Origin: Malacoraja senta
Taxonomy: Eukaryota
Length of the DNA stretch: 64,000 bases
Reading direction: 5' to 3'
Assembly: GCA_038087875.1 (NCBI GenBank)
Contig: CM075995.1
Span: 4,218,001-4,282,000, forward strand
Shown here in pieces: positions 2,140 through 64,000 of this stretch. The translations under genes and the position numbers were made by a program. Positions within the stretch are counted from its first letter, which is position 1. Every line of letters begins with the position of its first letter. The notes beneath the pieces are model-generated. The model had not been told where the DNA came from, ran no database searches, and saw only the letters and a list, made by a program, of their open reading frames with translations.

Positions 2140-4683
2140 TAAGTCTGCCTAGCCCTGGTTACCTCAGTGTTAGTTCCACTGATTCTTCCCCATCCTTCTC
2201 CAACTATGGGACCCCCTTCTCTTCCCCACCCACACTACAGCACTCTCACCCCCCCAACCCCTGACCACCCACCACCCCCCCACCGCCCACACCCCCACCA
2301 CACATTGCCTCGTCCCCATTCCACCCACCTGCCTTCCTCCGGCCCCAACCCCCATCCCTGCCGGGTGTTCACCATCCCCCCGACCTCCCCCTCTCCGACA
2401 TCGAACGGTCTGTCCTCAGCAGAGGTCTTACCTTTGTCCCCCTCCGTCCCCACCTCAATGAGTTCCGCGCCCTCCATGACTTGGAACGCTTCTACCGTCG
2501 CCTCCGCCTCACGGCGGACTTCCATGGAAGGAGTCCTCGCCCCCCACTGATGACCCCTTTCCCGTCTCCAACGCACCCCCTCCTCGTGGAACCCCCCTCG
2601 TAGCCTTCCTGCTTTAGAACTCTTCATCAAAAACTGCCGCCGTGACATCAACCGCCTCAACTTCTCCACTCCCGTCTCACTCCAATCTCTCCCCCCCTGA
2701 ACGCACTGCCATCGACTCACTCCGCAACAACCTAGATTGGGTTATCAAACCCGCCGACAAGGGAGGTGCCGTGGTAGTCTGGCGCGTCGATCTCTACAAA
2801 GCTGAGGCCACGCGCCAACTCTCGGACACCTCCTCCTACTTACCCCTGGACCATGACCCCACTGACGAGCACCAGGCCACCATCTCCAGCACCATCACCG
2901 ACTTCATCCACTCCCACGCCCTGCCCGACCGAGCCTCCAACCTCATCGTTCCCCAGCCCCGCACAGCCCGATTTTACCTTCTCCCCAAAATCCACAAACC
3001 TGACTGTCCCGGTAGACCCATTGTCTCTGCCTGTTCGTGCCCCACCGAACTCATCTCCACATACCTCGACTCCATCCTATCCCCCTTGGTTAAATCCCTC
3101 CCTACCTATGTTCAAGACACCTCAGACACTCTCCGTCATCTGCGCGCATTCCACTCTCTAGGCCCTCACCCCCTCATCTTCACCATGGACATCCAGTCAT
3201 TGTACACCTCCATCCCCCACCAGGATGGTCTCGAAGCCCTCCGGTTTTTCCTCGACCGAAAGAAGCAACCTATACCCGGCCACTGACACCCTCCTCCGCC
3301 TAGCTTCTCATTTGACTCCTCCCATTTCCTCCAAATACAAGGCGTAGCTATGGGCACACGCATGGGCCCCAGCTACGCCTGCCTCTTTGTCGGGTACGTA
3401 GAACAATCCTTGTTCAATATGTACCAGGGCCCCATCCCCGACCTCTACCTCCGCTACATCGATGACTGTTTTGGTGCCACCTCCTGCACCCACACACAAC
3501 TGACTGACTTCATCCGCTTCACCACCAACTTCCATCCGGCACTCAAATACACTGGACCATTTCTGACACTTCCCTACCATTCCTTGACCTCACTATCTCC
3601 ATCGCAGGTGATAGACTTCATACCGACATCCACTACAAACCTACCAACTCCATGGCTATCTGGACTACACTTCTTCCCACCCTGCTTCCTGTAAGGACTC
3701 CATCCCCACTCTCAATTCCTCTGTCTACGCCGCATCTGCTCCCAGGATGAGGCGTTCCACACCAGGGCATCCGAAATTTCCTCATTCTTCAGGGAACGGG
3801 GGTTCCCCTCCTCCACCATAGATGAGGCTCGCACCAGGGTCTCTGCCATACCTCGCAACACTGCTCTCTCTCCCCATCCCCCCCACTCACAACGCGGGCA
3901 GAGTCCCCCTAGTCCTCACCTTTCACCCACCAGCCGTCACATACAACAAGTGATCCTCCGTCAGTTTCGCCACCTCCAACGTGATCCCACCACTCGCCAC
4001 ATCTTCCCATCTCCCCCCCATGTCTGCTTCGCAAAGACCGCTCCTCCGTAACTCCCTTGTCAATTCTTCCCTTCCCTCCCGTACCACCCCCTCCCCGGGG
4101 TACTTTCCCTTGCAACCGCAAGAGATGCAACACTTGTCCCTTCACCTCCCCCCTCGATTCCATTCAAGGACCCAAGCAGTCGTTCCAGGTGCGACAGAGC
4201 GTAGGCTTGGCGATCGTTTTGCCGAACACCTCCGGTCGGTCCGCAATAACCTACCTGACCTCCCGGTGGCTCAGCACTTCAACTCCCCCTCCCATTCCGT
4301 ATCTGACCTCTCTGTCCTGGGTCTCCTCCATGGCCACAGCGAGCAACACCGGAAATTGGAGGAAATGCTCCTCATATTCTGCTTGGGCAGTTTACATCCT
4401 GGGGGCATGAACATTGAATTCTCCCAACTCTGCTAGCCCTTGCTGTCCACACCCCTTCATCAGCCCTTCTGGTTGTCTCCTCCCATCCCCCAGCCCTCGG
4501 GCTCCTCCTCCGCCTTTTTTCCTTTTTTCTTTCTTCTCCCCACCCCCTATCAGTCTGAAGAAGGGTTTCGGCCCGAAACGTTGCCTATTTCCTTCGCTCC
4601 ATAGATGCTGCTGCACCCGCTGAGTTTCTCCAGCATTTTTGTGTACCTTCGATTTTCCAGCATCTGCAGTTCCTTCTTTAACA
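2140..4683 (+). mobile_element. Penelope-like retroelement (RT + Cys linker + partial GIY-YIG; Neptune-like), frameshifted, ending in a pseudo-LTR
   Basis: Translated fragments IKPADKGGAVVVW, FYLLPKIHKP..GRPIVS, MGTRMGPSYACLF, YLRYIDD, CNRKRCNTCP, RLGDRFAEH..PVAQHFN..GMNIEF; terminal repeat about 4550-4683. Confidence 0.92.
4551..4586 (+). ncRNA. Minimal type I hammerhead ribozyme-like motif in the Penelope pseudo-LTR
   Basis: CTGAAGA (4555-4561)-A-GGGT TTCG GCCC-GAAAC-GTT: conserved CUGANGA and GAAA cores around a 4-bp stem II with a UUCG loop; palindromic ACGU helix III. Confidence 0.7.
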
Positions 4684-4870
4684 ACCTACAAACCTGTACA
4701 TCTTTGGAGTGTGGGAGGAAACCGAAGATCTCGAAGAAAAATCACGTGGTCACGGGGAGAACGTACACACTCCGTACAGACAGCACCCATAGTCGGGATC
4801 GAACCCGGGTCTCCAGCGCTGCGAATGCTGTAAGGCAGCAACTCTACCGCTGCACCACCGTGCCGCCCTC
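4684..4870 (-). mobile_element. tRNA-derived V-SINE (HE1-like), 5' part
   Basis: Reverse complement of GGCGGCACGGTGGTGCAGCGGTAGAG..GGTTCGATCC (A/B boxes) plus the V-domain. Confidence 0.85.
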
Positions 4871-4997
4871 CTAACCGTGGTTGTACAGCCATACATTCTT
4901 TTCACATTTCCAAGCTTTTCCGTCTGTCCTGCAGTGAGAATCATCCACCCCATCCAATCCTACTTCCCTGCTTTGCAAATGGCTACTTTATGCTATT

Positions 4998-5492
4998 TAG
5001 AAACATAGAAACATTGGAAATAGATGCAGGAGTAGGCCATTCGGCCCTTCGAGACATTCAATATGATCTTGGCTGATCATCCAAAATCAGTATCCCGTTC
5101 CTGCTTTCTCTCCATATCCCTTGATTCCATTAGCCCGAAGAGCTATATCTAACTCTTTGTCTAATCCCTGAAGAATTTTATGTTTCTATAAGATATCCTC
5201 TCATCCTAAATTCCAGTGAATACAAGCCCAGTTGATCCATTCTTTCATCATATGTCAGTCCCGCCATCCCGAGAATTAACCTGGTGAACCTACACTGCAT
5301 TCCCTCAATAGCAAGAATGTCACTCCTCAAATTTGGAGACCAAAACTTAACACAATACTCCAGGTGTGGTCTCACCAGGGCCCTGTACAACTGCAGTAGG
5401 ACCTCCTTGCTCCTATACTCAAATCCTCTCGCTATGAAGGCCAGCATGCCATTTGCTTTCTTCACTCTGCTGTACCTGTATGCTTACTTTCA
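4998..5492 (-). mobile_element. CR1 LINE 3' fragment
   Basis: ORF 5178..5465 (LYRALVRPHLEYCVKFWSP); tail near 5000. Confidence 0.9.
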
Positions 5493-5624
5493 ATACCCAG
5501 TATGTAACTGTGACTGATTGCACTAAATCAAAATATTGATTAAAACTGACAAGTGTCAATCAATATTTATAATTACTCAATGAAATGAACCTGGTCAGAT
5601 CAGTTTCGTTTATTACAATTACAG

Positions 5625-6030
5625 GTTAGGTTATTGTCACGTGTACCGAGGTACAGTGAAAAGCTTTTGTTGCGTGCTATCCAGTCAGCGGAAAAACAAT
5701 ATATGTTTACGATCGAGCCATTGACAGTGTATAGATACATGAGAAGAGAATAACGTTTAGTGCAAGGTAGAGCCAGTAAAGTTCGATCAAGGATAGTCCG
5801 AGGTTAGACAAAATTGCTGGAGAAACTCAGCGGGTGAGGCAGCATCTATGGAGCGAAGGATTTGGTGACATTTCGGGTCGAGACCCTTCTTCAGACTGAT
5901 ATGGGGGGGTGGCGGGAAGAAGAGGACTAAGGATAGTTCGAGGGTCACCAGTGAGGCAGACAGTAGTTCAGCACTGCTCTCTGGTTGTGGTAGGGTGGTT
6001 CGGTTGCCTGATAACAGCTGGGAAGAAACT
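5625..6030 (-). mobile_element. Rex1/Babar-like LINE 3' end, interrupted by a Penelope pLTR unit
   Basis: Same 3' UTR as 8100-8388 (GTACCTCGGTACACGTGACAATAA); SFFPAVIRQ motif. Confidence 0.75.
5804..5928 (-). mobile_element. Solo Penelope pLTR/hammerhead unit with 15-bp TSD
   Basis: Flanked by AAGGATAGTCCGAGG (5789-5803) and AAGGATAGTTCGAGG (5929-5943). Confidence 0.85.
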
Positions 6031-7155
6031 TGGGGGTAGGGTGTTGACATGGATAGAAAATTGGTTGGCAGACAGGAAGCAAAGAGTAGGAGTGAACGGG
6101 TCCTTTTCAGAATGGCAGGCAGTGGCGAGTGGAGTGCCGCAAGGCTCGGTGTTGGGGCCGCAACAGTTTACCATATATATATTAATGATTTGGAAGAGGG
6201 AATTAGGAGCAACGCTAGTAAGTTTGCAGATGACACAAAGCTGGGTGGCAGTGTGAACTGTGAAGAGGATATTAGGAGGTTGCAGGGTGACCTGGACAGG
6301 TTGAGTGAGTGGGCAGATGCGTGGCAGATGCAGTATAATATAGATAAATGTGAGGTTATCTACTTTGGTGACAAGAACAAGGGGGCAGATTATTATCTCA
6401 ATGGGGTTAGGTTAGGTAAGGGTGAGGTGCAGCGAGACGTGGGTGTCCTTGTACACCAGTCACTGAAAGTTGGCGTGCAGGTACAGCAGGCAGTGAAGAA
6501 AGCTAATGGAATGTTAGCCTTCATGACAAGAGGATTTCAGTATAGGAGTAAAGAGGTTCTTCTGCAGTTGTATAGGGCTCTGGTAAGAACACATTTGGAG
6601 TATTGTGTTCAGTTTTGGTCTCCTAATTTGAGGAAGGACATCCTTGTGATTGAGGCAGTGCAGCATAGGTTCATGAGATTGATCCCTGGGTTGGCGGGAC
6701 TGTCATATGAGGAAAGATTGAAAAGACTAGGCTTGTATTCACTGGAGTTTAGAAGGATAAGGGGAGATCTTATAGAAACATATAAAATTATAAAAGGACT
6801 GGACAAGCTAGATGCAGGAAAAATGTTCCCAATATTGGGCGAGTCCAGAACCAGGGGCCACAGTCTTAGAATAAAGGGGAGGTCATTTAAGACTGAGGTG
6901 AGAAAAAACCTTTTCACCCAGAGAGTTGTGAATTTGTGGAATTCCCTGCCGCAGAGGGCAGTGGAGGCCAAATCACTGGATGGATTTTACAGAGAGTTAG
7001 ATAGAGCTCTAGGGGCTAGTGGAATCAAGGGGTATGGGGAGAAGGCAGGCACGGGTTATTGATTGGGGATGATCAGCCATGATCACAATGAATGGCGGTG
7101 CTGGCTCGAAAGGCCGAATGGCCTCCTCCTGCACCTATTTTCTATGTTTCTATGT
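6031..7155 (+). mobile_element. CR1 LINE, 5'-truncated, relatively young
   Basis: GVPQGSVLGP, one frameshift near 6175, then open through KFADDTKLGG to the stop at 7062; TTCTATGT tail. Confidence 0.95.
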
Positions 7156-8678: not shown

Positions 8679-8679
8679 T

Positions 8680-12609: not shown

Positions 12610-12833
12610 TAGGAAAGGAACTGCAGATGCTGGTTCAAACTGAAGATATCCACAAAATGCTGGAGTAACTCAGCGGGACAGGCAGCATCTCTGGAGAGAA
12701 GGAATGGGTGACGTTTTGGGTCAAGACCATTCTTCGGAGTCTGAAGAAGGGTCTCAACTCAAAACATCACCCATTCCTTCTCTCTAGAGATGCTGCCTGT
12801 CCCGCTGAGTTACCCCAGCATTTTGTGTCCATC
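12610..12833. mobile_element. Inverted dimer of Penelope pLTR/hammerhead units with 14-bp TSD
   Basis: Arms are reverse complements; TCATGGAAGATGTG at 12596-12609 and 12834-12847. Confidence 0.88.
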
Positions 12834-13814: not shown

Positions 13815-15101
13815 TTAACCATATAACAATTTTTACAGCACGGAAACAGGCCATCACGACCCTTCTAGTCCGTGCCGAACACGTATTCTCCCCTAGTCCC
13901 ATATACCTGCGCTCAGACCATAACCCTCCATTCCTTTCCCGTCCATATAACTATCCAATTTATTTTTAAATGATAAAAACGAACCTGCCTCCACCACCTT
14001 CACTGGAAGCTCATTCCACACAGCCACCACTCTCTGAGTAAAGAAGTTCCCCCTCATGTTACCCCTAAACTTCTGTCCCTTAATTCTCAAGTCATGTCCC
14101 CTTGTTTGAATCTTCCCTACTCCCAATGGGAAAAGCTTATCCACGTCAACTCTGTCTATCCCTCTCATCATTTTAAAGACCTCTATCAAGTCCTCCCTTA
14201 ACCTTCTGCGCTCCAAAGAATAAAGCCCTAACTTGTTCAACTTTTCTCTGTAACTTAGTTGTTGAAACCCAGGCAACATTCTAGTAAATCTCCTCTGTAC
14301 TCTCTCTATTTTGTTGACATCCTTCCTATAATTAGGCGACCAAAATTGTACACCATACTCCAGAATTGGCCTCACCAATGCCTTGTACAATTTTAACATT
14401 ACATCCCAACTTCTATATTCAATGCTCTGATTTATAAAGGCCAGCACCCCAAAAGCTTTCTTTACCACCCTATCTACATGAGATTCCACCTTCAGGGAAC
14501 TATGCACAGTTATTCCTAGATCCCTCTGTTCAACTGCATTCCTCAATTCTCTACCATTTACCATGTACGTCCTAATTTGATTTGTCCTGCCAAGATGTAG
14601 CACCTCACACTTATCAGCATTAAACTCCATCTGCCATCTTTCAGCCCACTCTTCCAACCGGCATAAATCTCTCTGTAGACTTTGAAAATCTACTTCATTA
14701 TCCACAGCCCCACCTATCTTAGTATCATCTGCATACTTACTAATCCAATTTACCACACCATCATCCAGATCATTGATGTACATGACAAACAACAGTGGAC
14801 CCAACACAGATCCCTGTGGCACCCCACTAGTCACTGGCCTCCAACCTGACAAACAACCATCCACCATTACTCTCTGGCATCTCCCATTCAGCCACTGTTG
14901 AATCCATCTTGCTACTCCACCATTAATACCCAACCATTGAACCTTCTTAACCAACCTTCCGTGAGGAACCTTGTCAAAGGCCTTACTGAAGTCCATATAT
15001 ACAACATCCACGGCTTTACCCTCATCAATTTCCCGAGTAACCTCTTCAAAAAATTCAAGAAGATTAGTCAAACATGCCCTTCCAGGCACAAATCCATGTT
15101 G
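13815..15101 (-). mobile_element. Young CR1 LINE (distinct subfamily), 5'-truncated, uninterrupted ORF2 C-terminal ~400 aa
   Basis: ORF 13893..15140: QHGF..CLTNL, YMDFSKAFDKV, GVPQGSVLGPLLF, KYADDTK with no stops; 3' UTR matches 31580-31910. Confidence 0.95.
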
Positions 15102-15812
15102 AGAGCAGAAACAGGCCATTCGGCCCAGCGATCCCCGCACACCATCACTATTCTACACACGCTAGGGACAATTTACAATTTTTACCAAAGCCAAATATCC
15201 TACAAACCTGTACATCTTTAGAGTGTGGGAGGAAACCAGAGCAACTGGAGAAAAGCCACGCAGGTCACGGGGAAAACATGTAAAATCTTTACAGACAAGC
15301 ACCCGTAGTCAGGGTGGAACCCAGGCCTCTGGTGCTGTAAAGGGGCTGTCCCACTGTGGCGACCTAATCCGCAAGTTCTGGCGAGTTTGCCATCGACTCA
15401 TACTCGCAGCATGGTCAACACGAGGTCCTAGGAGGTCTTTGTAACTCTCCTTCATGCTCAAGAGTAGTCCCCGCATACTCGAGGCCTTAGCTAGGTCGCT
15501 GCGTATTTTTCAACATGTTGAAAAATGCCCGCGAGTAAAAAGAGGTCGCCATGGAAAAAATCGATACTTTTTTTACTCGTAGGTTTAGTCGAAGTAGTTC
15601 GGCATGTTATTCGTAGGTAATCGAGGGTAGTCGTAGATAGTCTTCGACATAGTCGAAGGAGGTCGAAGGAGGTCTTCTACATAGTCGAAGGAGGTCTTCA
15701 ACATGACATTTTTTCAAACTCTCCTAAACTCTTCTAAACTCGCCAATTTTAGGTCGCCGCAGTGGGACAGCCCCTTAAGGCAGCAACTCTACCGCTGTAC
15801 CACTGTACCACC
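15102..15812 (-). mobile_element. V-SINE split by a Harbinger-type MITE
   Basis: The SINE sequence GCTGTAAGGCAGC is interrupted at TAA. Confidence 0.85.
15341..15775. mobile_element. PIF/Harbinger-type MITE (TAA TSD)
   Basis: TAA|AGGGGCTGTCCCACTG...CAGTGGGACAGCCCCT|TAA. Confidence 0.9.
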
Positions 15813-25434: not shown

Positions 25435-25653
25435 TAAGTAGACACAAAATGCTGGAGTAACTCAGCGGGTCAGGCAGCATCTCTGGAGAACAGGAATGGT
25501 TCGAGACCCTTCTTCAGACCAAAGAGTCTGAAGAAGTCTCAAACAGAACGTCACCTATTCCTTTTCTCCTGAGATGCTGCCTGACCCACTGAGTTACCCC
25601 AGCATCTTGTGGCTATTTTCGGTGTTAACCAGCAACTGCAGTTCCTTCCTACA
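25435..25653. mobile_element. Inverted pLTR/hammerhead dimer with 11-bp TSD
   Basis: GATATTTATCA at 25424-25434 and 25654-25664; inverted arms. Confidence 0.85.
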
Positions 25654-27230: not shown

Positions 27231-27439
27231 TGTCTTTTGGACTGTCAAGATAAGGAATGGAAGAATTTAGGACAAATCCTGTGCAATCCCATCCTGATCA
27301 CCTAACCTAGGTTGGGATAGCACAGGATTTTCATTGAATTTTTTCTCTTCTTATCTTGACAGTCCAAAAGATAATAGAACATAAAACATAATTTTTCACT
27401 GGCCTAGATTCTCAACGGCAAACGCCTATATAATTAGAC

Positions 27440-27900
27440 ATTAAAGCTGGAGTAACTCAGCGGGTCAGGCAGCATCTCTAGAGAGAAGGAATAGGTGACG
27501 TTTCAGATCAAGAACCTTCTTCAGACTTGGAGAAAGGGAAACGAGAGATACAGATAAAAAGAACAAATGAAGAAAAGATCTGCAAAAAGCAATATCAAGG
27601 AAAGGTGGAGCCCACAATGGTCCATTGTTGGCTGTGGGGTAGGTGATAACAAGTGATGCAGACAGTGAAACTCACCAGGGCGACAGTGACACTAGTACGA
27701 CGAATAGGGTGGTGGTGGGTTGGAGAGAGAAGGGATGCAAGGGTTAATTGAAGTTCGAGAAGTCAATGTTCATACCGCTGGGTTGTAAGCTTGGGTGATG
27801 TTCCTCCAATTTGCGTTGGGCTTCCCTGACAGTGGAGGAGGCCCAGGACAGAGAGGTCAGTGTGGGAATGGGAAGGGGAGTTAAAGTGTTTGGCAACTGG
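27440..27900 (-). mobile_element. Penelope-like 3' fragment (GIY-YIG C-terminus + pLTR)
   Basis: RKLEEH..SLQPSGMNIDFSN; pLTR at about 27440-27527. Confidence 0.85.
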
Positions 27901-32550: not shown

Positions 32551-32749
32551 GACACAATTGCTGGAGAAACTCAGCGGGTACGGCAGCATCTATGGAGCGA
32601 AGGGAATAGGCAACGTTTCGGGCCGAAACCCTTCTTCAGCCTGAAACGTTGCCTATTTCCTTCGCTCCATAGATGCTGCCGTCCCCGCTGAGTTCCTCCA
32701 GCAATTTTGTCTACCTTCGATTTTCCAGCATCTGCAGTTCCTTCTTGAA
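32551..32749. mobile_element. Inverted pLTR/hammerhead dimer with 16-bp TSD
   Basis: AATGTTACAGAAGGCA at 32535-32550 and AATGTTATAGAAGGCA at 32750-32765; intact HHR core on the minus arm. Confidence 0.88.
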
Positions 32750-33273: not shown

Positions 33274-33326
33274 AATGTGGGAACTCTTGTGAGAACACAA
33301 AGACAGAATTATTAAACGTCCATTAC

Positions 33327-34425: not shown

Positions 34426-34578
34426 AGACACAACAAACTCAGTGGGACAGGCAGCATCTCTGGAGAGAAGGAATGGGTGACGTTTCGGGTCGAGACACCT
34501 TCTTTACCTATTCCTTCCCTCCAGAGATACTGCTTGTCTCGCTGAGTTACTCCAGCATTTTGTGTCTATCTTCAGTCC
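34426..34578. mobile_element. Inverted pLTR dimer (centre deleted) with 9-bp TSD
   Basis: ACAAAATAT at 34417-34425 and 34579-34587. Confidence 0.8.
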
Positions 34579-36482: not shown

Positions 36483-37374
36483 GGAGAAAGATAGGATGTA
36501 ATGAACACAGTGAGATAGAAAATATGAAGGGGTTATGTAACCTTTGAAGGAGCATTAAAAGAATGCTCAATAAGCAGGCCCACTATACATTAAATAGTAG
36601 ATAATACACATCAAGAGGAAGGAGCAACATGTCTATTAATAAGTAGACGCAAAATGCTGGAGAAACTCAGCGGGAGAGGCAGCATCTATGGAGAGAAGGG
36701 GGTGCTTTTGTCAGAACCTTTTTACCAGCATGGAAATGTCAAAGACTAGTGGGAATAGCTTTACGGAGCGAGGGACAAATGTAAAGGAGATGTGCGGGGC
36801 AAGTATTTTTACACAGAGGGCGACGAGTGACTGGAACGCACTGGCAGGGGTGGTGGTGGAGGCAGATATCACAGTGGTTTTTAGATCGGCACATGGATAT
36901 GCAGAGAATGGATGGGTATGTATCATGTGCATGCAGATAAGATTGATTTATTGTGGCATCATGTTCGGCACAGACATTGTGGGCCGAAGGGCCTGTTCCT
37001 GTGCTTAACTGTTCTGTGTTCCACGATCTAGATACGGTGACAGATAAAAATAACAAAGTGCAGGAAGGAACTATGGATGCTGGTTAATACCGAAGAAAGA
37101 CACATAATGCTGGAGTAAGTGGGCCAGGGCCTTAACTCTCTTTTGAAAACATCCAGTGAATTGGCCTCCACTGCCTTCTGTGGCAGAGAATCCCACAGAT
37201 TCACAACACAAAATACTTAAGTATAGTTACACAAAAAGTTACGCAAAACTTCTACAAAGAGAGTGATTTTCATCAGGCCATTTGAAGTTTTGTGCAGATT
37301 AGGATAAGCAGAGTAGCTCACATCAGAAAGGTAATGAATTTCTCGAGTGTGTTCAAAAAAGATATCTGCAGTAA

Positions 37375-37604
37375 GTGTAGGTAGGAAGGAACTGCAGATG
37401 TTAGTTTAGATCAAAGATAGACGCAAAATGCTGGAGTAACTCAGCGGGCCAGACAGCATTCTTTTGGGTCGAGACCCTTCTTCAGACTCCGTCACAGGGA
37501 GACTCCGTCTGAAGAAGGGTCTCGACCCAAAATGTCACCTATTCCTTTTCTCCAGAAATGCTGTCTGACCCGCTGAGTTACTCCATCTTTTTGTATTTAG
37601 CTTC
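37375..37604. mobile_element. Inverted pLTR/hammerhead dimer with 15-bp TSD
   Basis: AGATATCTGCAGTAA at 37360-37374 and AGATATTTGCAGTAA at 37605-37619. Confidence 0.88.
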
Positions 37605-41980: not shown

Positions 41981-44191
41981 TCTGAAAGGTTGCTGAAAAT
42001 AATTTAGTGAATTATTGGGTAAAGTGACAGGTTAGTGAAGTGTGTTCAACAAAGAATTTAACCTGGTAAACAATCAATTTAAACCAGACACAAGGGACTG
42101 CAGATGCAGGTTAAAAAAAAGACACAAAGTGCTGGAACAATTCCGCATTTCTGGATGACATGCGTAAGTGACGCTTCGGGTCGGGACACATTCTTCAGAC
42201 TGATTGTAGTAAGGGAGAAAAAACGGGAATGAAATAACACACTGATAAAGATATAATAATCGGTAATACAATGAATTAATAACTGGAATATTAGGAAACC
42301 ATAATAGTGCCAAAACCAAAGACATAGTCCATACAAGGTCATAGTTGTTGAGGTTGAGGTTAGTGTTGAGCAGTGTTCAAGAGCCTGACATTTGCTGGGA
42401 AGAAGCTCATGATTTTCAGGCTCCTGTACCAGAGAGTTGTGAGTATGGAATTATCTGCCTCGGAGGGCGGTGGAGGCAGGTTCTCTGGATGCTTTCAAGA
42501 GAGAGCTAGATAGGGCTCTTAAAGATAGCGGAGTCAAGGGGATATGGGGAGAAGGCAGGAACGGGGTACTGATTGGTGATGATCAGCCATGATCACATTG
42601 AATGGCAGTGCTGGCTCAAAGGGCCGAATGGCCTACTCCTGCACCTATTGTCTATTGTCTATTCTTCCCGATGGTAGTAGCCAAATGAGAGCGTGGCCAG
42701 GTTGGTGCGGGTCCTTGGTGATATTGGCTGCCTATTTGAGGCAGCACCACCTACAGATTCCTTTGATGATGGGGAGCAGTGCTTGTGATGGACTGAATAA
42801 TGTCCACCATTGTGGTCTCCTTTGTCCCTGAGCATTCGAATTGCAAAGTCGCCAAACAGGCCATGATGCGACCAGTCGGTACCCTCTCTGCCGGTAGAGG
42901 TTCTCCAGCCTCTCCCCAACATCAATGCCACCACACTACACACTTCCTCGGGAAAGCAGCCAACATAATCAAAGACCTAGTAATTCCCCAGAAATTCCTG
43001 TCACCCTAGAATTGTCACCCGAGGAATTCCCTCTTCTCCCCGCTGCCATCGGGCAGAAGAGGCAAAAGCTTTGAAACATGTATCTGTAGTTCTGTTGTTT
43101 TGCGTAATCCCGCAGGCATTGCCACTTTCATTTCACTGTACATCTTGTATGTACATTTGACAAATAAAGTTGACTTGACTTGACTTGACCAATTTCAGGA
43201 ACAGCATTTTCAGCCTAATGAACAGTTCTTTCATAACTCAAATTTCAGTGTACCTTAATTGGTACATGTGACAATTAAATTGAATCTTGAATCTTGAATC
43301 TTAAATCTTGAAGCTAAATGTGTGATACCCAATTCACTTCATTGTGGACCTTGCACCTTTTTCTGCACTAACTCTGTAACTATAATACTATAATACTGTA
43401 ACACAATATTCTGCACATTAATATTTCTTTCTTTGCACTACCCGTGCCACTTGTCTATGCCTTGATTGTACTCGTGTAGTATGATTTGAATGGAGAGCAC
43501 ACAAACTAACTTTCTTGATGTATCTCTGTACACATGACAATAATAAACCAATACCAATGTTTTGCCTGACCATGTACCTGTGTATGGTACATGGTCAGGC
43601 AATGTATCTTAAATATTGTCATTGTACCTACCTCAACTACCTCCTCTGGCAGCTTGTTCCATGTACCCACCAACCTCTGTGTAAAAAACTTGCACCTCAG
43701 ATCCCTTTCACCTTAAGCCTATATCCTCTAATTTTCAGACAGTGACTACCATGGGAAAAAGACCATGACTATCTAACCTTTCTATGCCCCTCATGATTTC
43801 ACAAACCTTGAAAAGGCCACCCCTATGTTTCCTTCACTGCAGGCTAAACAATCCCAGCCTATCCAACATTTCTTTACAAATGTAAGCCTTCCAGTCTAGG
43901 TTACATGTCTGAGAGTCTTTTCTGCACCCTCGCTAAGGTCACCCACTCAGGCCATGGCATCTCAAATGCTCACCTAAGCACTTCTTATTTGTCTCCAACA
44001 TCCTCTCAAGCTGTGCCTTACAAATTCCAATCCACCTTCTGGATGACAAAGTTCCTCCTTCGGTCCCCTGTAAATCTCCCACCCCTTACCTTAAAGCTAT
44101 GCTGCCTCGGTATAGACATTGACAGTTTGGAATTAGCTGCGCAGGTGACCAAAGAGAGATGAGTTATATTGGGGTGGATGTAGGCTTTGAA

Positions 44192-44512: not shown

Positions 44513-45554
44513 ACTAGTTCACAACTAGTTTTGAGTATATTCAAAGTTTTTTAGTGATAGGCTGGAAAGCAAACAAGAAAGACAACTAGAGAGCACTCCT
44601 GAACTACTATCTATCTCATTGGAGATCGTCGGACTATCTTTGATTGGACTTGACTCACTTTACCTTCGACACTTCGACACAAAATGCTGGAATAACTCAG
44701 CGGGACAGGCAGCATCTCTGGAGTGAAGGAATGGGTAACGTTTCGGTTTCGGGTCAAGACCCTTCTTCTTATTCCCTTCCCTTGCGCTCATTCCCTTCTC
44801 ATGTATCTGTACACTGTGATTGTAATCATGAAAAAGTTTCCACTCAAGTTCCTATGAAATCCTTCCTCTTTCACCTCTCACCTTTGCCTTCCTTGATTCC
44901 CCTACCTTGGGTAAAACGATTGTGCATTCACCATATCCATTCCCAATAAGTTGCCTATTCTACTACCTACGTTACAGCTTTTCTAATTCTAAATCCAATT
45001 TCAAAAGATAAATGATGCTGGTACTGCATGCCTATAAATTAGACTTTGATATTTTCTTTTTAATTTTTGACATATGAAGACATACGTGGAAAGGGAAACT
45101 AATATAAATCAAGCCCAAAAGCAAGAAAAAGCAAATGATCTCATCTGTAACATTGCCTGCAGCTAACTTCCACTCTAATTCCCAAAGAGTGAGGAAAAAA
45201 AGAAAAAACTATTATGTGTTATGTACAGAGACTAAAGATGGATAAACCGCAAGGGGTAATTGTAGAAAAGCAAATAATGAAATTTGTTTAAGTTCCTCCT
45301 TGAACACACATAAATGAAACAATAATGCTATTAAGAGTTTTGATATCAGGAGGCTGTCAAACATGTCACGACCAACAGAGTTTTTTAATCAAAATTATAT
45401 ACAATTCTATCTTATCTAAGCTGAACTTTCTTCACATTTCCTGATCAAAAGCATTATTTGATTGTTTCTGGTTCTGCTGGTTCTCCATAATAATACCTCA
45501 GAATGAAACCAAAGCTTTTCAGAAGAAAATACAGCTGAATCCTACAAATCTTCA

Positions 45555-45915: not shown

Positions 45916-46555
45916 GTAAGTATGTATTTAGTGAATGTTAAATTATTCTCTCAGTAGATTTGTGTGTACCGAGTTCTGTTTGGAACCCAACGTCAACCGT
46001 CATTTTAAATATTGCAGCATGTCGTTGCAACCCAGCGTGAATCCAAGCTGTGTCTGTACATCAGTCTGAAGAAGGGTCTCGACCTGAATTGTCACCCATT
46101 GCTTCTCTCCAGAGACGCTGCCTGTCCCACTCAGCTATTCCAGCATTTTGTGTCTACCTTCTGTATCTGTTCACTGTGGACGGCTCGATTGTAATTAAGT
46201 ATTGCTTTCCGCTGACTGGTTAGCGCGCAACAAAACCTTTTCACTGTACCTCGGTACACGTGGCAATGAACTAAACTCAACTCAACGCTGCCGCCGCTGA
46301 CACTACTGCAAGCTCCCTCACCTCTACGCACCCCACTGCCAACCATTTCTCTCTTGCATCTCTCTGGACCCAGACCTGAAAGCATTCCTTCTGTGAATTC
46401 TGCATTGAAGCTGTGGATGAGAGAAAGGATTTCCTGCGTGCAGGGCTGATTCAGTGGGAGCAGCCACCCTATTCCATTATAGAACAACTCCTAATGTTGC
46501 AACAGTCAATGGTCTATATCATTGATCTATAGTCAATGGTTTCTTTATTATAACA

Positions 46556-48139: not shown

Positions 48140-48600
48140 AAAAGGAATAGGTGACATTTTGGGGAAAAGGAATAGGTGACATTTTGGGTCGAGACCCTCC
48201 TTCAGAATGTCAGGGAAAAGGGAACCGAGTGATATAGAAGATACGTAGGACAAATTAATGAAAATGATACAAAAAGTAAGGATATCAAGGAAATGTGGAG
48301 CCCACAATGGTCCCTTGTTGGCTGTGGGTAGGTGATAACGAATTATACCATCAGTGAAACTTAACAGGATGACAGTGAAACTAGTATGGCGTCTAGGGTG
48401 GGGGTGGGACGGAAAGAGAGGGGATGCAAGGATTACTTGGTTGGAGTTGGCCGCTGGGGTGTGAGCTGCCCAAGTGAAAAATGAGGTGCTGTTCCTCCAA
48501 TTTACGTTTAGCCTCACTCTGACAATGGAGGAGGCCCAGGACAGAAAGGTCAGTGCGGGAGTGGGAAGGGGAGTTGGCAACCGGGAGATCACGCAGGCCA
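48140..48600 (-). mobile_element. Penelope-like 3' fragment + pLTR
   Basis: Matches 27440-27900 and 4280-4600. Confidence 0.8.
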
Positions 48601-48874
48601 AGGCAGACTGGGGGGGGGGGGGGGGGGGTTTATGGAGCTTTCACTTCTGTGCAATTCGATTAACATACCCTTTACAAAGGTGTAATCCCTGGAAAGTGCA
48701 GAAAAGTAATGAAGGAAGTTCAGGCGCAGAAAGACAAAGCAGGAAAATAGGTGTACTATTTGGAAGCAGCTATGAGTGACATCTGCCCTCAAATTCATAA
48801 CTTTCTTCCATATCACTTTGGCCCAGCTCAAAGGTGCGAAGTTTGGCTTACGTGTTTTACTTTCATTGAACAAT

Positions 48875-49070
48875 GAAAGGAACTGCAGATGCTGGTTTAC
48901 ACCGAAGATAAACACAAAATGCTGGAGTAACTCAACAGGTCAGGCAGCATCTCTGGATAGAAAGAACCGGTGACGTTTCCGGTTGAGACCCTTCTTCAGA
49001 TTGAGAGTCAGGAGAGAGGGAAACGAGAGATATTGAGGGGTAAGGTATGAAAACCAGAGATCAAAGGAAA
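48875..49070 (-). mobile_element. Penelope pLTR unit
   Basis: GGAACTGCAGATGCTGG..GACCCTTCTTCAG. Confidence 0.8.
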
Positions 49071-52176: not shown

Positions 52177-53779
52177 TAGTGCATTCAGAAAGTATTCAGA
52201 TCCCTTCACTTTTTCCACATTTTGTTACGTTACAGCCTTATTCTAAAATGGATTAAATTCTTTTTTTTTATCATCAATCTACACACAATACCCCATAATA
52301 AAAAAGCAAAAAACAGTGTTTAGAAATATTTGCAAAGTAATTAAAAATAAATAACTGAAATATCACATTTACATAAGTATTCATACCCTTTACTCAGTAC
52401 TTTGTTGAGGCACCTTCGGCAGCGATTACAGCCTCAAGTCTTCTTGGGTATGACGCTACAAGCTTGGCACACCTGTATTTGGGTAATTTCTCCCATTCTT
52501 CTCTGCAGATCCGCTCAAGCTCTGTCAGATTGGATGGGGAGTGTCGATGCACAGCTATTTTCAGGTCCCTCCAGAGATATTCGATCAGGTTCGACTCTGG
52601 GCTCTGGCTGGGCCACTCAAGAACATTCATAGACTTGTCACAAAGCTACTCCTGTGTTGTCTTGGCTGTGTGCTTAGGGTCGTTGTCCTGTTGGAAGGTG
52701 AACCTCTGCCCCAGTCAGAGGTCCTGAACGTTCTGGAGCAGGTTTTCATCAAGGATCTCTCTGTTCTTTACTCCGTTCATCATTCCCTTGATCCTGACTA
52801 GTCTCCCAGTTCCTGCTGCTGAAAAACATCCCCACAGCATGATGCTGCCACCACCATGCTGCACCGTAGGTATGGTATTGGCCAGGTGATGAGCGGTGCC
52901 TGGTTTCCTCCAGACGTGACGCTTGGCATTTAGGCCAAAGAGTTCAATCTTGGTTTCATCAGACCAGAGAATCTTGTTTAGGTGCCTTTTGGCAATCTCC
53001 AAGTGGGCTGTCATGAGCCTTTTACTGAGGAGTGGCTTCCGTCTGGCCCACTCTACCATAAAGGCCTGATTTGTGGAGTGCTGCAGATATAGCTGTCCTT
53101 CTGGAAGGTTCTCCATTTCTACAGAGAAACTCTGGAGCTCTGTCAGAGTGACCATCGGGTTCTTGATCACCTCCCTGACCAAGGCCCTTCTCCCCAGATT
53201 GCTCAATTTGGCCGGGCGGCCAGCTCTATGAAGAGTCCTGGTGGTTCCAAAGTTTTTCCATTTCCGAACGACGGAGGCCACTGTGCTCTTCGGGACCTGC
53301 AATGCTGCAGAAATTGTTTTATATCCTTCCCCAGATCTGTGTCTCGAAGCAATCCTGTCTCGGAGGTCTATGGACAATTCCTTTGTCTTCATGGCTTGGT
53401 TTTTGCTCTGACATGCGCTGTCAACCGTGGGACCTTATATAGATTGGTGTGTGCCTTTCCAAATCATGTACAATCAATTTAATTTACCACTGGTGGACTC
53501 CAATCAAGTTGTAGAAACATCTCAAGGATAATCAATGGAAACAGGATGCACCGAAGCTCAATTTGAGTGTCATAGCAAAGGGGTCTGAATACTTATGTAA
53601 ATGTGATATTTCAGTTATTTCTTTTTAATTACTGCAAAAATTTCTAAACCTGTTTTCGCTTTTTTATTATGGGGTATTGTGTGTAGATTGATGATATAAA
53701 AATGAATTTAATCAATTTTAGAATAGGCTGTAATGTAACAAAATGTGGAAAAAGTGAAGGGGTCTGAATACTTTCTGAA
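52177..53779 (-). mobile_element. Tc1/mariner DNA transposon, IR/DR type with ~210-bp TIRs
   Basis: Left TIR TAGTGCATTCAGAAAGTATTCAGATCCC after a (TA)n run; inner repeat TAAGTATTCATACCC; mirror TIR at about 53575-53779. Confidence 0.95.
52394..53392 (-). pseudogene. Tc1 DD34E-type transposase, inactivated
   Basis: MKTKELS..GRPAKL, WSDETKIELFG, HGGGSIMLWGCF, FQQDNDPKH, WPSQSPESNLIE; in-frame TGA at 52715 and a locally frameshifted segment. Confidence 0.93.
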
Positions 53780-54059: not shown

Positions 54060-55180
54060 CATCACAGTCCTGCACAAAGAACTTTTCTGCAAAGGACAAA
54101 TGAATGAAAGATATGCAAAAAGTAACGATCATCAAGGAAAGATGGAGCCACAATGGTGATTTGTTGGCTCTGGGCTTGGTGATAACAAGTTGTGCAGACA
54201 GTGAAAATCAACAGGATGACACTGAAACTAGTACGAAGACTAGGGTGGGGGAGGTATGGAGAGAGAGGAGATGCAAGGGTTTCTTGAAGTTAGAGAAACC
54301 TACATACATACCGCTGGGGTGTAAGCTGCCCAAGCGAAATATGAGGTGCTGTTCCTCCAATGTATGTTTGGCCTCACTCTGACAATGGAGGGGGCCCAGG
54401 ACAGAAAGGTCAATGTGGGAATGGGAAGGGGGTTAAAGTGTTTGGCAACTGGTAGGCCAAGGCACACTGCGCGAAATGATCGCCCAGTCTACGTTTTGTC
54501 TCGCCAATATATAAGGGTCCACATCTGGAACCGTGGATACAGTAGATGAGGTTGGAGGAGGTGCAAGTGAACCTCTGCCTCACCTGAAACGACTGTCGGG
54601 GTCCCTGGACGCAGTCGAGGGAGGAGGTATAGGGACAGGTGATGCATCTCCTGCGGTTGCAGGGGAAGGTACCTGGGGAGGGGGTGGTTTGGGTGGGAAG
54701 GGATGAGTTAACCAGGGAGTTGCAGATATAATTCAGGACTCAACTGGAGCCATGACATACATCTTCCCAAGGGTCCCTGATGTCCATAGTGTGCATCCAT
54801 CCTTACATAATAACAAAATAATAAACAAGGCAATACAAACCTAACCTCAGTTTTGAGAGATCGATTGAAGGTGGGATCAATCAGAGCAATGATAGATAAT
54901 GTTTCTGGTCGGAAACCTTCCCCAGATTGCGGAAGGCCCCGACCCGAAACGTCACCCATCCATGTTCTCCAGTGATGCTGCCTGACCATGTGTGCAGGAA
55001 GGAACTGCAGATGCTGGTTTAAACCGAAGATAGACACAAATTGCTGGAGTAACTCAGCGGGACAGGCAGCATCTCTGGAGAGAAGGAATGGGTGACGTTT
55101 CGGGTCGAGACCCTTCTTCAGGTGAAGAAGATGCTGCCTGGCCCGCTGGGTTACTCCAGCATTTTGTGTCTATCTTCGGT
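54060..55180. mobile_element. Penelope-like 3' fragment (- strand, about 54060-54725) and pLTR units (about 54895-55180)
   Basis: Reverse of the GTFPCNR..YCIRCSRC..YIGET region; intact HHR core on the minus strand near 55090-55122. Confidence 0.8.
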
Positions 55181-55739
55181 CCAGACATGTATCCTGTGTG
55201 GAAAAAAGCTGCATGTTGTAAAACTAGAAATCTCTACCACCCAAACCTCTGAATTTCCCATATATCCTTCTCCTTTGAAACCAGCCCTTGTTGAAATCAT
55301 GGCCAGAGACATTTATGACATTTAATTTGTTTTTGAATGGCTATTGCTGTATGCATAAGGTGATTTATCATAGTTTTAATTGTAATTACTCATATTTATA
55401 TTCAATTCTGATATTTAATGTGCTTTTATTGCAAGCGTTATTAATATCTTCCCATTTTTCTCTTCAAAAAAATGATTGCGTCTTGAGATTAATGAACGGA
55501 TTTGCATAACTGGCTAGTGACCATCCGGGCTGCCAGTAAGATAACTCGTCCCTGTAAATCTAACCCTGATTACCATTCAGCAGCAAGTATTAGCTCAATC
55601 TGACTGGCCCCTTGTCCCACTGAGATTTCAATGCATCTCTGAAATGCAAAATGACGACAAGGCCTTCACACATCTTTATAAATTCCGGCAAGTTCATTGC
55701 CTCATTGTGACCTGTGAGCAAAATCCAGTTTGGCAGTAA

Positions 55740-56669: not shown

Positions 56670-56762
<93 letters not shown>

Positions 56763-56866: not shown

Positions 56867-56868
<2 letters not shown>

Positions 56869-59508: not shown

Positions 59509-59648
59509 GTTGTTTAAGAAGGAACTGCAGACGCTGGAAAATCGAAGGTGGACAAAAATGCTGGAGAAACTCAGCGGGTGAGGCAGCATCTGTGGAGCGA
59601 AGGAAATAGGCAACGTTTCGGGCCGGGACCCTTCTTCAGACGGTCGGA
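59509..59648 (-). mobile_element. Solo Penelope pLTR/hammerhead unit with perfect 14-bp TSD
   Basis: AGATAAGATGACAA at 59495-59508 and 59649-59662; minus strand GTCTGAAGAAGGGTCCCGGCCCGAAACGTTGCC. Confidence 0.9.
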
Positions 59649-59859
59649 AGATAAGATGACAATGCACTTTCACTTTCTTGTATTCTTTAGTATCATTGAA
59701 AACGAGCAATGCATATTCATTATCCAGAACAGAAACATTTATAAAAAATTGTGCCGGCATGTAAATCATGAACTATATTTCTGTTGCTACATTTGAACCA
59801 CTGTCTAGGTGGTGAAGACCATTACCTCTTTTTTTTCTTGGTTTAAACTTTTAGAACTT

Positions 59860-61204: not shown

Positions 61205-62090
61205 ACTTTAGCCAGGGTGGAGCGCAGGGAAGGGAGGGGGGGTTGAAAGGGTGAGGAGGGTGTTGCCTAAAACTGGAGAATTCAATTGTAAGCTACCCGA
61301 GCAGATTATGAGGTGCTCTTCCTCCAGTTTGTATGTTCATAAGGTCATGAGTGACAGGATCAGAATTAGGCCATTCGGCCCATCCAGTCTGCTCTGCCAT
61401 TCAATCATATTTCCCTCTTAACCCCATTCTCCTGCCTTCTCCCATTTAACCACTGACACCCGTACTATCTATCTCTGCCTTAAAAATATCCATTGACTTG
61501 GCCTCCTGTGGTAATGAATTCCACAGATTTGCCACCCTCTGACTAAGGAAATTCCTCCTCATCTCCTTCCTAAAGGAACGTCATTTAATTCAGAGACCAT
61601 GACCTCTGGTCCGAGACTCTCCCACTAGTGGAAACATCCTCTCCACATCAACACTAACCGGGCCATACACTATTCGGGATATTTCAATGAGGTTCCCCCT
61701 CATCCTTCTAAACTCCAGCACGTAGAGGCCCAGTGCCGTCTAACGGTCATCATATGTTAACCCACTAATTCCTGGGATCATGTTTCGTGTAAATCTGCTC
61801 TGAACACTCTCCAGTGCGAGCACATCCGTCCTCAGATATGGGGCCCAAAATTGCTCACTCTGTGGCCTTACTCAGGCAATGGATGAGGCCCAGGACAGGA
61901 AGGTCAGTAGTGGAATGGGAATGGGAGTTAAAATGGTTAGCAACCAGGAAATCCAGCAGGCCTTGGCAGACCAAGTGCAAGTGTTCGACGAAATGGTCGC
62001 CTAATCTTTGCTTGGTCTCGTCGATTTACAGGAAGCCATATTGGGAGCACTGAATGCAGTAAATGAGGTTAGAGGAGGTGCATGTGAATG
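61205..62090 (-). mobile_element. Penelope-like fragment split by a CR1 fragment (about 61335-61860)
   Basis: The PLE GIY-YIG region resumes after the CR1 sequence. Confidence 0.7.
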
Positions 62091-62099
62091 ATCTGCATG

Positions 62100-63010
62100 T
62101 TTCGCCTCTCCATTCAGAAGATTGTGGATTCAAGTTCCATTCAAGGGATTTAAGCATTATAACTAATTTGATGGTCCAGGTGAGTGTTTCATTTTTGGCT
62201 ATGTTTCAAACAAGGTAGTGAATCGCTATACCTCCTCCCTCGACTGCGTCCAAGAACCCTGGCAGTCCTTTCAGATGAGGTAGAGGTCACTTCCTTCAAC
62301 CTCCTCTACTGTATCCACTGTTCCAGATGTGAATCCAATATATCGGCAAGACCAATAGCAGGCTCGGCGATCGTTTCGCTGAACACCTCCGCTCAGTCTG
62401 GCTAGGCCTACGCGATCACCCAGTTGCTAAAAACATTAACTCCCCTCCCATTCCCACACTAACCTTTCTGTCCTGGGCCTCCTCCATTGTCAGAGTGAGG
62501 CCCAGCGCAAATTGGAGGAACAGCACCTCATATTTCACATGATCAGCCTACCACCCAGCGGTACGAATATTGACTTCTCTAACATCAAGTAACATGCTCT
62601 CCCTCTCTTTCCGTCCCTCCCCCACCCTAGTTCTCCGACTAGTCCCTCTCCCCTGACTCTCAGTCTGAAGGAGGGTCTCGACCCGAAACGTCACCCATTC
62701 CATCCCTCCAGAGATGCTGCCTGTCCCACTGAGTTACTCCAGCATTTTGTGTCTATATTGAATCAGGAATTATTTTGCCCTTTCAGGAGATATGAAGATG
62801 AGCACTCATCAGCAATGATGATCAGTACCTATTTCACATCCCACTTTGCTTGAATAGAAACCTCCTCTGGTGTGTGTGGGCTCTCAGATCAGCTATGAGG
62901 TTTCTTGCATTACACCAGAGACTGGACTCCAGAAAATACTTAATTGTGTTTAAGTGTTTTGAAACAGACTCAGGTTGTGAAAGATGTGAATAAATGCAAT
63001 CATTTTTATT
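62100..63010 (+). mobile_element. Old DeuSINE/SacSINE-like relic interrupted by a Penelope fragment
   Basis: Head TCGCCTC..CAGAAGATTGTGGATTCAAG and 3' ..GGTTGTGAAAG..ATAAATGCAA resemble my recollection of the SacSINE1/AmnSINE consensus. Confidence 0.45.
62225..62757 (+). mobile_element. Penelope-like 3' fragment + pLTR
   Basis: LYCIHCSRC..RLGDRFAEH..RKLEEQHLIF; pLTR at about 62660-62757. Confidence 0.85.
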
Positions 63011-63297
63011 TCAGTATCATGTTACTTAAATAATATGTTTAAGTTCTGCATATGTGCTAACCTGATCAATAGGCAGCTCCACTTGTGTCAGATTATCTTC
63101 TTGAATTTCCATTGCATCCAAGGTCTCCCTCCTTTCCTCAAAAGCTTTGAACACGCAGTTTTCTGGGGGAAAGGGGATAATGTTATTAAGACGGTGTTAA
63201 ATACAAGACAATGATACAACAGTGGCTACCAGTGGTGTGCAGCAAGAATTGCATCTCATCTCCAGCAATAAGTGCTAGCAAATACTTCACATCGCAT

Positions 63298-63605
63298 GGG
63301 AGGCACGGTGATGCAGCGGTACATCTACTGCCTTACTGCGTCAGAGGCCCGGGTTCGATCCCGACTACGGGTGCTGTCTGTAGGAGTTTGTACGTTCTCC
63401 CTGTGACCTGTGTGGGTTTTCTTCAAGACCTTTGGTTTCCTCCCACACACCAAAGATGTACAGGTTTGTAGGTTAATTGGCTTGGTATAAAATGTTAAGA
63501 AAAATTATCCCTGGTGTGTGTAGGATAGTGTTAATTTGCGGGGATCGCTGGTCAGTGTGGAATCAGTCGGCTGTTTCCGTGCTGTATCTCGAAACTAAAC
63601 TAAAC
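63298..63605 (+). mobile_element. V-SINE
   Basis: Family match with an AAACT tail. Confidence 0.87.
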
Positions 63606-63632
63606 ATTTTGCCATCACCAGTTTGTTAATGT

Positions 63633-63851
63633 GTAGGAAGGAACTGCAGATGCTGGTTTACAGCCAAGATAGACACAAAAAGCTGAAGTAACTCGGCGGG
63701 TCAGGCAGCATCTCTGGAGAAAACGAATAGGTGACATTTTGGGTCGAGACCCTTCTTTAGACTAATTTCTTCAGACTGGAGTCGAAACGCCACCTATTCC
63801 TTTTCTCCAGAGATGCTGCCTGACCCGCTGCGTTACTCCAGCATTTTATGT
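63633..63851. mobile_element. Inverted pLTR/hammerhead dimer with ~21-bp TSD
   Basis: CCATCACCAGTTTGTTAATGT at 63612-63632 and CCATTACCAGTTTGTTGATGT at 63852-63872. Confidence 0.85.
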
Positions 63852-64000
63852 CCATTACCAGTTTGTTGATGTTTGAAACCATTCACAGTAAAGAGAATGG
63901 TTTGTTTAAGAAATCTTAATTGTGGACATAGTTATAAGTTTGTTGCTGTCTGACTCAGACGTTTACTTTGTAAACAGTTCTCCATTATTCCCCTGTATTA

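Follow-up and report, generated by a model that had tools for sequence, protein, structure and literature searches.

INTRODUCTION

Insertions of Penelope-like elements (PLEs) that encode an endonuclease (EN+) typically carry an inverted, 5′-truncated copy together with a tail of 30 to 40 bp on one end (PMC8557442, PMC3846280, and PMC2377424; cited papers are represented here by excerpts, and statements about them hold for those excerpts). The same sources describe head-to-head inverted termini, a hammerhead in the terminus, palindromic junctions, and variable target site duplications (TSDs) of ~8 to 20 bp, and the origin of the inverted and tailed ends is acknowledged as an open question (PMC8557442, PMC3846280). 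Here we describe a stretch of 64,000 nt from Malacoraja senta (GCA_038087875.1, contig CM075995.1, positions 4,218,001 to 4,282,000, forward strand), referred to below as the window, in which the terminus of a Neptune-type PLE, a pseudo-long terminal repeat (pLTR) with a predicted hammerhead, recurs in short insertions. These copies represent an extreme, pared-down version of the known Penelope pattern. In contrast to the published insertions, their halves are only 70 to 135 nt long and lack open reading frames (ORFs). They are also very dense, with 8 fold-backs in 64 kb, and an initiator-like motif marks a sharp boundary common to their 5′ ends. They lead to a precise, testable hypothesis for the origin of short and inverted pLTRs.

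Insertion has been followed in vitro for PAc, a Poseidon-clade element from Anolis, which cuts both strands of the target, extends both, and initiates from a pair of internal sites close to the pLTR-ORF junction (PMC11167929). The tail of PAc lies between these two priming sites, at a distance downstream of the hammerhead similar to that in the window; 5′-shortened templates give shorter products, and ribozyme cleavage is not needed (PMC11167929). Short solo or inverted copies and run-off at a start site are not discussed in the excerpts of that paper. Minimal hammerheads dispersed in metazoan genomes have the same core as the window motif, with an additional base following A9, and likewise a stem III that is palindromic; they occur as singles and as opposite-strand pairs 100 to 700 bp apart that have been ascribed to truncated PLEs (PMC4209133). 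The window motifs differ in the spacing of paired copies, 0 to 25 nt, and in having a stem I of only 2 bp, and the excerpts of PMC4209133 contain no TSD or breakpoint analysis. Non-LTR retrozymes are likewise short, noncoding, pLTR derived, and hammerhead bearing, and have also been reported from a cartilaginous fish, but they are head-to-tail tandem units (bioRxiv 10.64898/2026.07.22.740005). The window copies, by comparison, are monomers or head-to-head pairs.

Two better-known processes offer partial analogies. In twin priming of L1, both nicks are primed and an inversion results from nonoverlapping parts of one RNA, whereas both arms of a window fold-back copy the same stretch. Retroviral minus-strand strong-stop DNA is a short run-off cDNA primed near the RNA 5′ end, but it involves a tRNA primer and strand transfer, which have no counterpart in the model presented below. 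Overall, we consider it probable (~0.85) that the window copies arose as by-products when Neptune-type Penelope elements carried out target-primed reverse transcription and do not constitute a family of their own.

RESULTS AND DISCUSSION

Most short terminus copies begin at the hammerhead core's 5′ edge

All positions are those of the whole window, and positions within the terminus follow the numbering of the copy at 2140 to 4685, with the following features.

2140 to 4685, + strand: predicted Neptune-type Penelope-like element of subfamily A, 5′ truncated and frameshifted, with reverse transcriptase (RT), Cys linker, partly deleted GIY-YIG, 3′ untranslated region (UTR), and terminus with tail
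4550 to 4556, + strand: initiator-like TCAGTCT after a pyrimidine tract; 5′ boundary of short copies, with a predicted +1 at A4552
4555 to 4582, + strand: predicted minimal type-I hammerhead core (CUGAAGA, extra A, stem II, GAAACGUU), with core C3 at 4555
4648 to 4685, + strand: tail, between the short 3′ end (~4647 to 4649) and the long 3′ end (~4683 to 4685)

A profile built from six termini recovered 28 terminus arms in the window, compared with one match (E = 1) in the reversed window. These 28 arms make up eight fold-backs and 12 single arms, four of which extend at least 400 nt into the UTR or ORF. The 5′ starts were read by eye, and four of them (63633 right, 54991 right, 54888 right, and 36643) are uncertain. 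In all, 18 of the 28 arms start within 4549 to 4559, including the four uncertain ones. Among arms bounded by a TSD or by a partner arm, 15 of 18 start within these 11 nt, and the other three begin near 4521, at 4571, and at 4581 to 4583. Counting one end per locus, eight of nine fall within the 11 nt (P of ~5e-6 against a uniform spread over 111 nt). The cluster coincides with the 5′ edge of the core and is one-sided: no fold-back arm clearly passes A4552, save the ambiguous left arm of 37375 and the decayed 54888 remnant. At the junction of 63633, the A4552-equivalent end is seen twice.

Sequencing reads from four runs (X1, X9, X16, and X21), aligned to positions 3790 to 4686, display a similar boundary; the figures given here and below are for the rows listed. 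Depth over the core exceeds the body median 10-fold in X1 and 21-fold in X21, with no comparable drop over 660 bp of body, bearing in mind that depth on a contig does not equal copy number. The 5′ loose ends, which are heterogeneous, have their peak at 4553 in X1 (162) and X21 (399) and at 4552/4554 in X16. The arm starts and the reads together bear out the proposal, made in an earlier note on this DNA, that the 5′ ends of the terminus insertions gather near the ribozyme and are not scattered along the element. That note had also tied the ribozyme site to the 5′ junction, which holds insofar as the cluster adjoins the core but not for the predicted cut at 4582|4583.

Target site duplications and fold-back structure

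The copies, other than the one described above, are as follows; fold-backs have no assigned strand.

5804 to 5928, − strand: monomer with short 3′ end; 5′ start ~33 nt upstream of core; 15-bp TSD
12610 to 12833: fold-back, B1; left arm long, right short; 14-bp TSD
25435 to 25653: fold-back, B2; left short, right long; 11-bp TSD
27435 to 27900, − strand: longer 5′-truncated B copy with GIY-YIG end, UTR, and terminus; short 3′ end
32551 to 32749: fold-back, subfamily A; left short from core C3, right long from stem II; 16-bp TSD
34426 to 34578: fold-back, B1; two short arms, the right starting at the cut site or at most 2 nt off; 9-bp TSD
36643 to 36723, − strand: decayed solo arm; TSD search found none
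37058 to 37126, − strand: 3′ arm fragment with tail; TSD search found none
37375 to 37604: fold-back, B2; left long, right short; duplicated junction hairpin; two rare letters common to the arms; 15-bp TSD
42091 to 42230, − strand: decayed solo arm with tail, reaching ~25 nt into the pyrimidine tract
44675 to 44769, − strand: solo short arm within another repeat, starting in the core; TSD not clear
46060 to 46160, + strand: solo short arm starting at ~4549 to 4550; borderline 13-bp TSD with 2 mismatches
48158 to 48610, − strand: longer 5′-truncated B copy; 3′ part gone
48872 to 49060, − strand: B copy with tail and at least 60 nt of UTR
54888 to 54988: old, truncated, decayed fold-back remnant; TSD not clear
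54991 to 55185: additional fold-back, B; left long, right short with internal deletion; TSD not clear
59509 to 59648, − strand: monomer with tail, subfamily A, starting at the G4553 equivalent and preceded by a 6- to 8-nt inverted copy of its own 5′ end; 14-bp TSD
62223 to 62763, + strand: longer 5′-truncated B copy with GIY-YIG, UTR, and terminus; short 3′ end
63633 to 63851: fold-back, B2; left long, right short; 10-nt slip duplication at the junction; 21-bp TSD

The eight short insertions for which the earlier note had listed TSDs are real TSD-bounded insertions. In window order, the duplications measure 15 (1 mismatch), 14, 11, 16 (1), 9, 15 (1), 14, and 21 (2) bp. They score 9 to 15 and are the best match at each locus, and the same scoring applied to 150 random coordinate pairs reached 9 or more three times. 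For 5804 to 5928, the 15-bp TSD sequence is present as a single copy in six paralogous copies of the host repeat in the window, which represent the empty site; no paralogous site was found within the window for the other seven. All six fold-backs described in that note, with hammerhead ends meeting at the center, were recovered, and two more (54991 to 55185 and the decayed 54888 to 54988) were added. One arm is longer than the other in five of those six, the exception being 34426 to 34578, where both are short. The terminus does recur without an ORF in the short copies, but it is also found on longer, ORF-linked or UTR-bearing copies (27435 to 27900, 48158 to 48610, 48872 to 49060, and 62223 to 62763). 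In addition, 61287 to 62088 and 62223 to 62763 might form a single long fold-back, although their arms are only 72% alike. Of the 15 nondimer Penelope copies and fragments of the body, 12 are in minus-strand orientation (P = 0.035, two-sided), and this excess among solo pieces may reflect a host transcription unit.

At the 3′ side, arms end either near 4643 to 4656 or near 4680 to 4685, giving two ends ~35 nt apart, and 3′ loose ends occur at 4647 to 4649 and at 4683 in X9, X21, and X16. A long arm is paired with a short one in six of the seven scorable fold-backs (P = 0.06), so that the stretch between the two ends is often confined to a single end. What makes one arm longer is the Penelope tail already described (PMC8557442, PMC3846280). 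Since an inverted pLTR with a one-ended tail has been published as typical and the PAc tail has been mapped between priming sites, the overall anatomy of the fold-backs, an inverted 5′-truncated copy at the 5′ end with the whole unit inside a TSD, is already known; in the window, a paralogous empty site accompanies one of the eight insertions.

The fold-back junctions all differ from each other (8/8). Both arms of each dimer have identical subfamily letters, with arms sorting by parent subfamily, and in three of seven dimers, including 32551 to 32749, rare letters are common to both arms. Because the junctions differ and the arms of a dimer match in their subfamily letters, every fold-back appears to have arisen separately, from one source lineage. 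A tree of 21 of the 28 arms, excluding seven short or decayed ones, rejects dimer monophyly (approximately unbiased [AU] test, P = 0.0002); dimer arms are interleaved with monomers and ORF-linked copies, although most branches are weak. In four of the eight junctions, both arms are retained to 4552 to 4555, mostly with extra letters between them.

These features were also compared with those of other classes of mobile DNA. No head-to-tail hammerhead units were found, and wherever two of the 28 arms form a close pair they lie on opposite strands, so the copies were not classified as non-LTR retrozymes. Miniature inverted-repeat transposable elements (MITEs) and other fold-back DNA transposons have symmetric terminal inverted repeats and a constant TSD length, and they are ruled out here by TSDs of 9 to 21 bp and unequal ends. 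Short interspersed elements (SINEs) have a polymerase III head plus a poly(A) or simple-repeat tail; the window copies have no poly(A) end, and no tRNA, 5S, or 7SL matches were found in a general Rfam scan, which included no dedicated tRNA scan. Exact-pattern scans of metagenome, viral, and prokaryote genome contigs yielded 0 copies.

The parent element and its hammerhead

The copy at 2140 to 4685 appears to be a broken Neptune-type EN+ PLE of cartilaginous fish. Both the N terminus and the 5′ pLTR are missing, and the copy sits inside another repeat, with a duplication of 2 to 5 bp as judged from six paralogous empty host repeat sites in the window. Cartilaginous fishes are the source of its best named relatives (for a Mobula protein, 73%), and the homologues of its protein have PF00078, with a subset also having PF01541, although Pfam gave zero matches for the two Penelope ORF fragments themselves. 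Matches found by tblastn span the RT to the endonuclease C terminus, which indicates that the RT together with a GIY-YIG at the C terminus was encoded in a single ORF; this ORF is now frameshifted, and an endonuclease piece has been lost near 4200. At ~4199 to 4203, where an endonuclease segment present in other copies is absent, the loose ends of reads agree at 0.85 to 0.94 (X1 and X9). The protein contains the motif CNRKRCNTC near 4113, as do close homologues. A CX2-5CxxC linker of this kind between RT and endonuclease marks Neptune and Nematis (PMC8557442) and is therefore not exclusive to Neptune. At least three subfamilies of Neptune-type Penelope elements are behind the window copies. 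Reads from the body (3790 to 4450) have a 1.2- to 4.3-fold bias toward one first-mate direction in X21, and those from the terminus are at ~1:1.

The terminus contains a predicted minimal type-I hammerhead with a cut at 4582|4583. Its core is unchanged in all 15 rows of an alignment that combines five copies from the window with ten related loci, and covariation is seen in stems I and II (0/500 shuffles, with a hand-set 6-pair structure); self-cleavage itself is a prediction from the motif. The architecture matches that reported in PMC4209133. When the same descriptor was applied to 80 related loci, there were 29 matches in 23 loci and none in the reversed sequence. Rfam detected no hammerhead, with no gathering-score match in the window and nothing beyond chance matches in 4400 to 6000, and the hammerhead is not the top structure in single-strand folding (z from −1.8 to 0.9), as is expected for so minimal a motif.

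Immediately before the core, in subfamilies A and B, are a pyrimidine tract and CAG. We take A4552 to be the +1 of the initiator-like TCAGTCT; the same letters can be read as an AG splice acceptor behind the pyrimidine tract, and a 9-nt palindrome (4550 to 4558) includes the boundary letters. In subfamily A, stem II and GAAAC also form a 15-nt near-perfect palindrome (4565 to 4579), which can seed fold-backs and muddles strand assignment in read mapping.

A proposed run-off model for the short copies

By-products of target-primed reverse transcription could take this form if cDNAs extended to an RNA start just before the ribozyme, were primed at both nicks, and were joined head-to-head. We hold this full run-off model only tentatively, at somewhat less than an even chance. 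The element mRNA would begin at the initiator-like A4552, three bases 5′ of the hammerhead core. The element protein would nick both target strands, as PAc does in vitro, and prime at two internal RNA sites ~35 nt apart, corresponding to the tail ends and first met ~95 and 130 nt from the 5′ end of a pLTR-ORF-pLTR transcript. Priming at these 5′-proximal sites would yield a short cDNA (~95 or 130 nt) that runs off the RNA 5′ end. A single primed nick would give a monomer, and two primed nicks, usually one per site, would give two run-off cDNAs that end-joining repair could link head-to-head, leaving small loops, microhomologies, or slips. Long, randomly truncated copies would arise when the 3′ terminus copy is the one primed, and the ribozyme would be carried along uncut. 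The literature searched, which did not extend to most subscription papers, including the 2005 to 2006 Penelope reviews, contained no proposal that solo or inverted pLTRs arise by run-off to a hammerhead-adjacent start, which is weak evidence of novelty.

A transcription start at A4552 would be consistent with motifs in 14 related invertebrate-type Neptune families, which were compared with the initiator and TATA consensus sequences. An initiator-like +1 lies at −3/−4 from core C3 in six of the 14 families (~2 expected; nominal P = 0.005 to 0.018), and a TATA motif plus initiator with a spacing of 28 to 34 nt is present in three of the 14 (nominal P < 0.001 in full shuffles and 0.02 in a local shuffle). 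Among individual loci, L002, L013, L043, and L057 have a TATA-like box 33 to 38 nt before the core and an initiator-like site at −3 to −8. Another Penelope family has a 158-bp hammerhead-centered fold-back (L016:50-207), one arm of which starts 3 to 5 nt before the core; its target is AAT rich. An extra G before A4552, as expected from cap copying, occurs in several junctions and in one read row, but it is explained by the other arm in 12610 and was not counted.

Several observations weigh against this reading. The motif windows were picked after the data had been seen, so that the P values are nominal, and the core itself provides two of the seven initiator letters. The inverted arms of ORF-bearing related loci start at +1, −45, −46, +55, −222, −231, −243, and (twice) beyond −400 from the core, and clustering at the core edge is thus not universal. 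These loci were chosen as long copies, which are expected to be primed at the 3′ terminus, and they neither back nor break the run-off model. The Penelope of Drosophila virilis starts ~120 nt upstream and has an intron that ends at the ribozyme (PMC2377424, PMC4209133), and PAc belongs to a different clade (PMC11167929). In the read data, the depth step is overstated, as B-type reads pile up at the terminus of subfamily A, with 476 loose ends at 4589; many X21 reads continue into a variant pyrimidine tract (552 at 4549 versus 399 at 4553); and the 4553 peak is not among the six rows listed for X9. The 9-nt palindrome overlaps the 5′ cluster. Finally, an RNA run, from a fragmented library of a related organism, gave no site at which many molecules start.

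Inversions also arise far from the ribozyme: at L078:772-945, an inverted junction lies within the RT coding region. Among the 80 loci, 13 other palindromes were inspected, and none is a hammerhead fold-back. Unrelated palindromic, MITE-like elements of 100 to 200 bp lie close to Penelope copies in L012, L029, L030, L054, and L079.

Alternative explanations

The position of the boundary might suggest that self-cleavage sets the junctions, and the hammerhead motif is indeed conserved and covarying, with the right arm of 34426 to 34578 beginning at the cut site or within 2 nt of it. This is the only one of the 28 arms to start there, and no loose ends at 4582/4583 are among the 24 rows listed. 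Because a 3′ cleavage product would be without the core, yet 18 of the 28 arms start about 25 to 30 nt upstream of the cut, self-cleavage does not make the junctions. We consider this explanation highly improbable, given also a stem I of just 2 bp. That the junctions are not made by self-cleavage agrees with the results for PAc, in which cleavage is dispensable and uncleaved RNA is inserted (PMC11167929). The 5′ clustering is instead tied to what precedes the ribozyme. One candidate is the possible splice acceptor: RT copying unspliced nuclear RNA may stall at a factor-occupied 3′ splice site (pyrimidine tract plus AG at 4552 to 4553), with a minority reading through to give long copies. The adjacency of the tract and CAG to the core in both subfamilies fits such a stall, as do the D. 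virilis intron, which ends at helix I of the ribozyme (PMC4209133), and the retention of introns in Penelope copies (PMC2377424). However, AG is found at the boundary in one of the 14 related families, which is the chance level; a splice joint ending at 4554 is absent among the 15 of 225 joints listed; and a search for a constant upstream exon showed none, the 5′ loose letters being heterogeneous (agreement of 0.33 to 0.34). We therefore regard a stall at the acceptor as unlikely.

Heavy 5′ truncation followed by snap-back self-priming at local palindromes (the 9-nt one near 4554 and the 15-nt one at 4565 to 4579) would make the clustering a matter of palindrome sites. Both palindromes are present, self-priming at palindromic inverted junctions has been proposed (PMC3846280), and the inverted copy of its own 5′ end at 59509 to 59648 and the rare letters common to the arms in three of seven dimers are in keeping with it. 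One arm begins in stem II, and the 85 loose ends that X9 has at 4565 give a consensus matching the opposite strand of the element. However, the four junctions that keep both arms to 4552 to 4555, with extra letters mostly between, are not simple products of the 9-nt palindrome; the short arms end at 4643 to 4656, near the short site of the monomers, as would be the case for a primed end; and snap-back gives no account of cDNAs that pass the core and continue for hundreds of bases. As the sole explanation it is on the unlikely side, if slightly less so than the acceptor stall, and it may also act on top of run-off. The earlier note had raised, as one of two options, a ribozyme-tipped nonautonomous retroposon. 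Such an independent element, SINE-like or retrozyme-like, 100 to 135 nt long, self-transcribed, and moved in trans by Penelope protein, would be compatible with the several-fold excess of termini over bodies and with the clean TSDs. The short copy could have an internal promoter, as in D. virilis Penelope (PMC2377424), and nonautonomous Penelope derivatives are known (PMC8557442; bioRxiv 10.64898/2026.07.22.740005). This option did not hold up: the differing junctions and the rejection of a dimer clade, with dimer arms interleaved among ORF-linked copies, run counter to it, and no dominant joined form occurs among the joints listed, which comprise 15 of 225 and, for those with intervening letters, 12 of 408. 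Furthermore, PAc RNA must reach past the first priming site (PMC11167929), a part that an inserted short copy is without. Remobilization that makes a fresh junction each time is possible, but overall an independent retroposon is improbable.

Neighboring features

The window also contains RT-bearing fragments of long interspersed elements (LINEs), which we presume to be CR1/L2-like, and other sequences, as follows.

64 to 609, + strand: RT-bearing LINE fragment
6040 to 7062, + strand: RT-bearing LINE fragment (PF00078)
13893 to 15152, − strand: RT-bearing LINE fragment (PF00078)
33312 to 34286, − strand: acidic, repetitive open frame of 324 codons with no Pfam match, possibly a large host exon
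52715 to 53434, − strand: Tc1/Sleeping Beauty-like transposase fragment (PF25787 and PF01498)

Implications

The dense, minimal insertions with a base-precise 5′ boundary permit a direct test of how Penelope-like ends form, and the tempting view of the ribozyme cut as the setter of junctions is ruled out. A broader rule is conceivable, on which we lean slightly less than on the run-off model itself: many PLEs may start transcription a few bases before the hammerhead and prime ~100 to 130 nt from the cap, producing mostly strong-stop-like copies of the terminus, with priming at both nicks yielding TSD-bounded hairpins. If true, this would account for short pLTRs in solo and inverted form, for a tail on one side, and for the minimal hammerheads that occur by the thousands as orphans in animal genomes, and the start site would shorten stem I and thereby keep the 5′ ribozyme copy weak. 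If eight fold-backs per 64 kb, as seen in this one window, are typical, elasmobranch genomes would contain very many hairpin templates of ~100 bp, which may be a source of double-stranded RNA.

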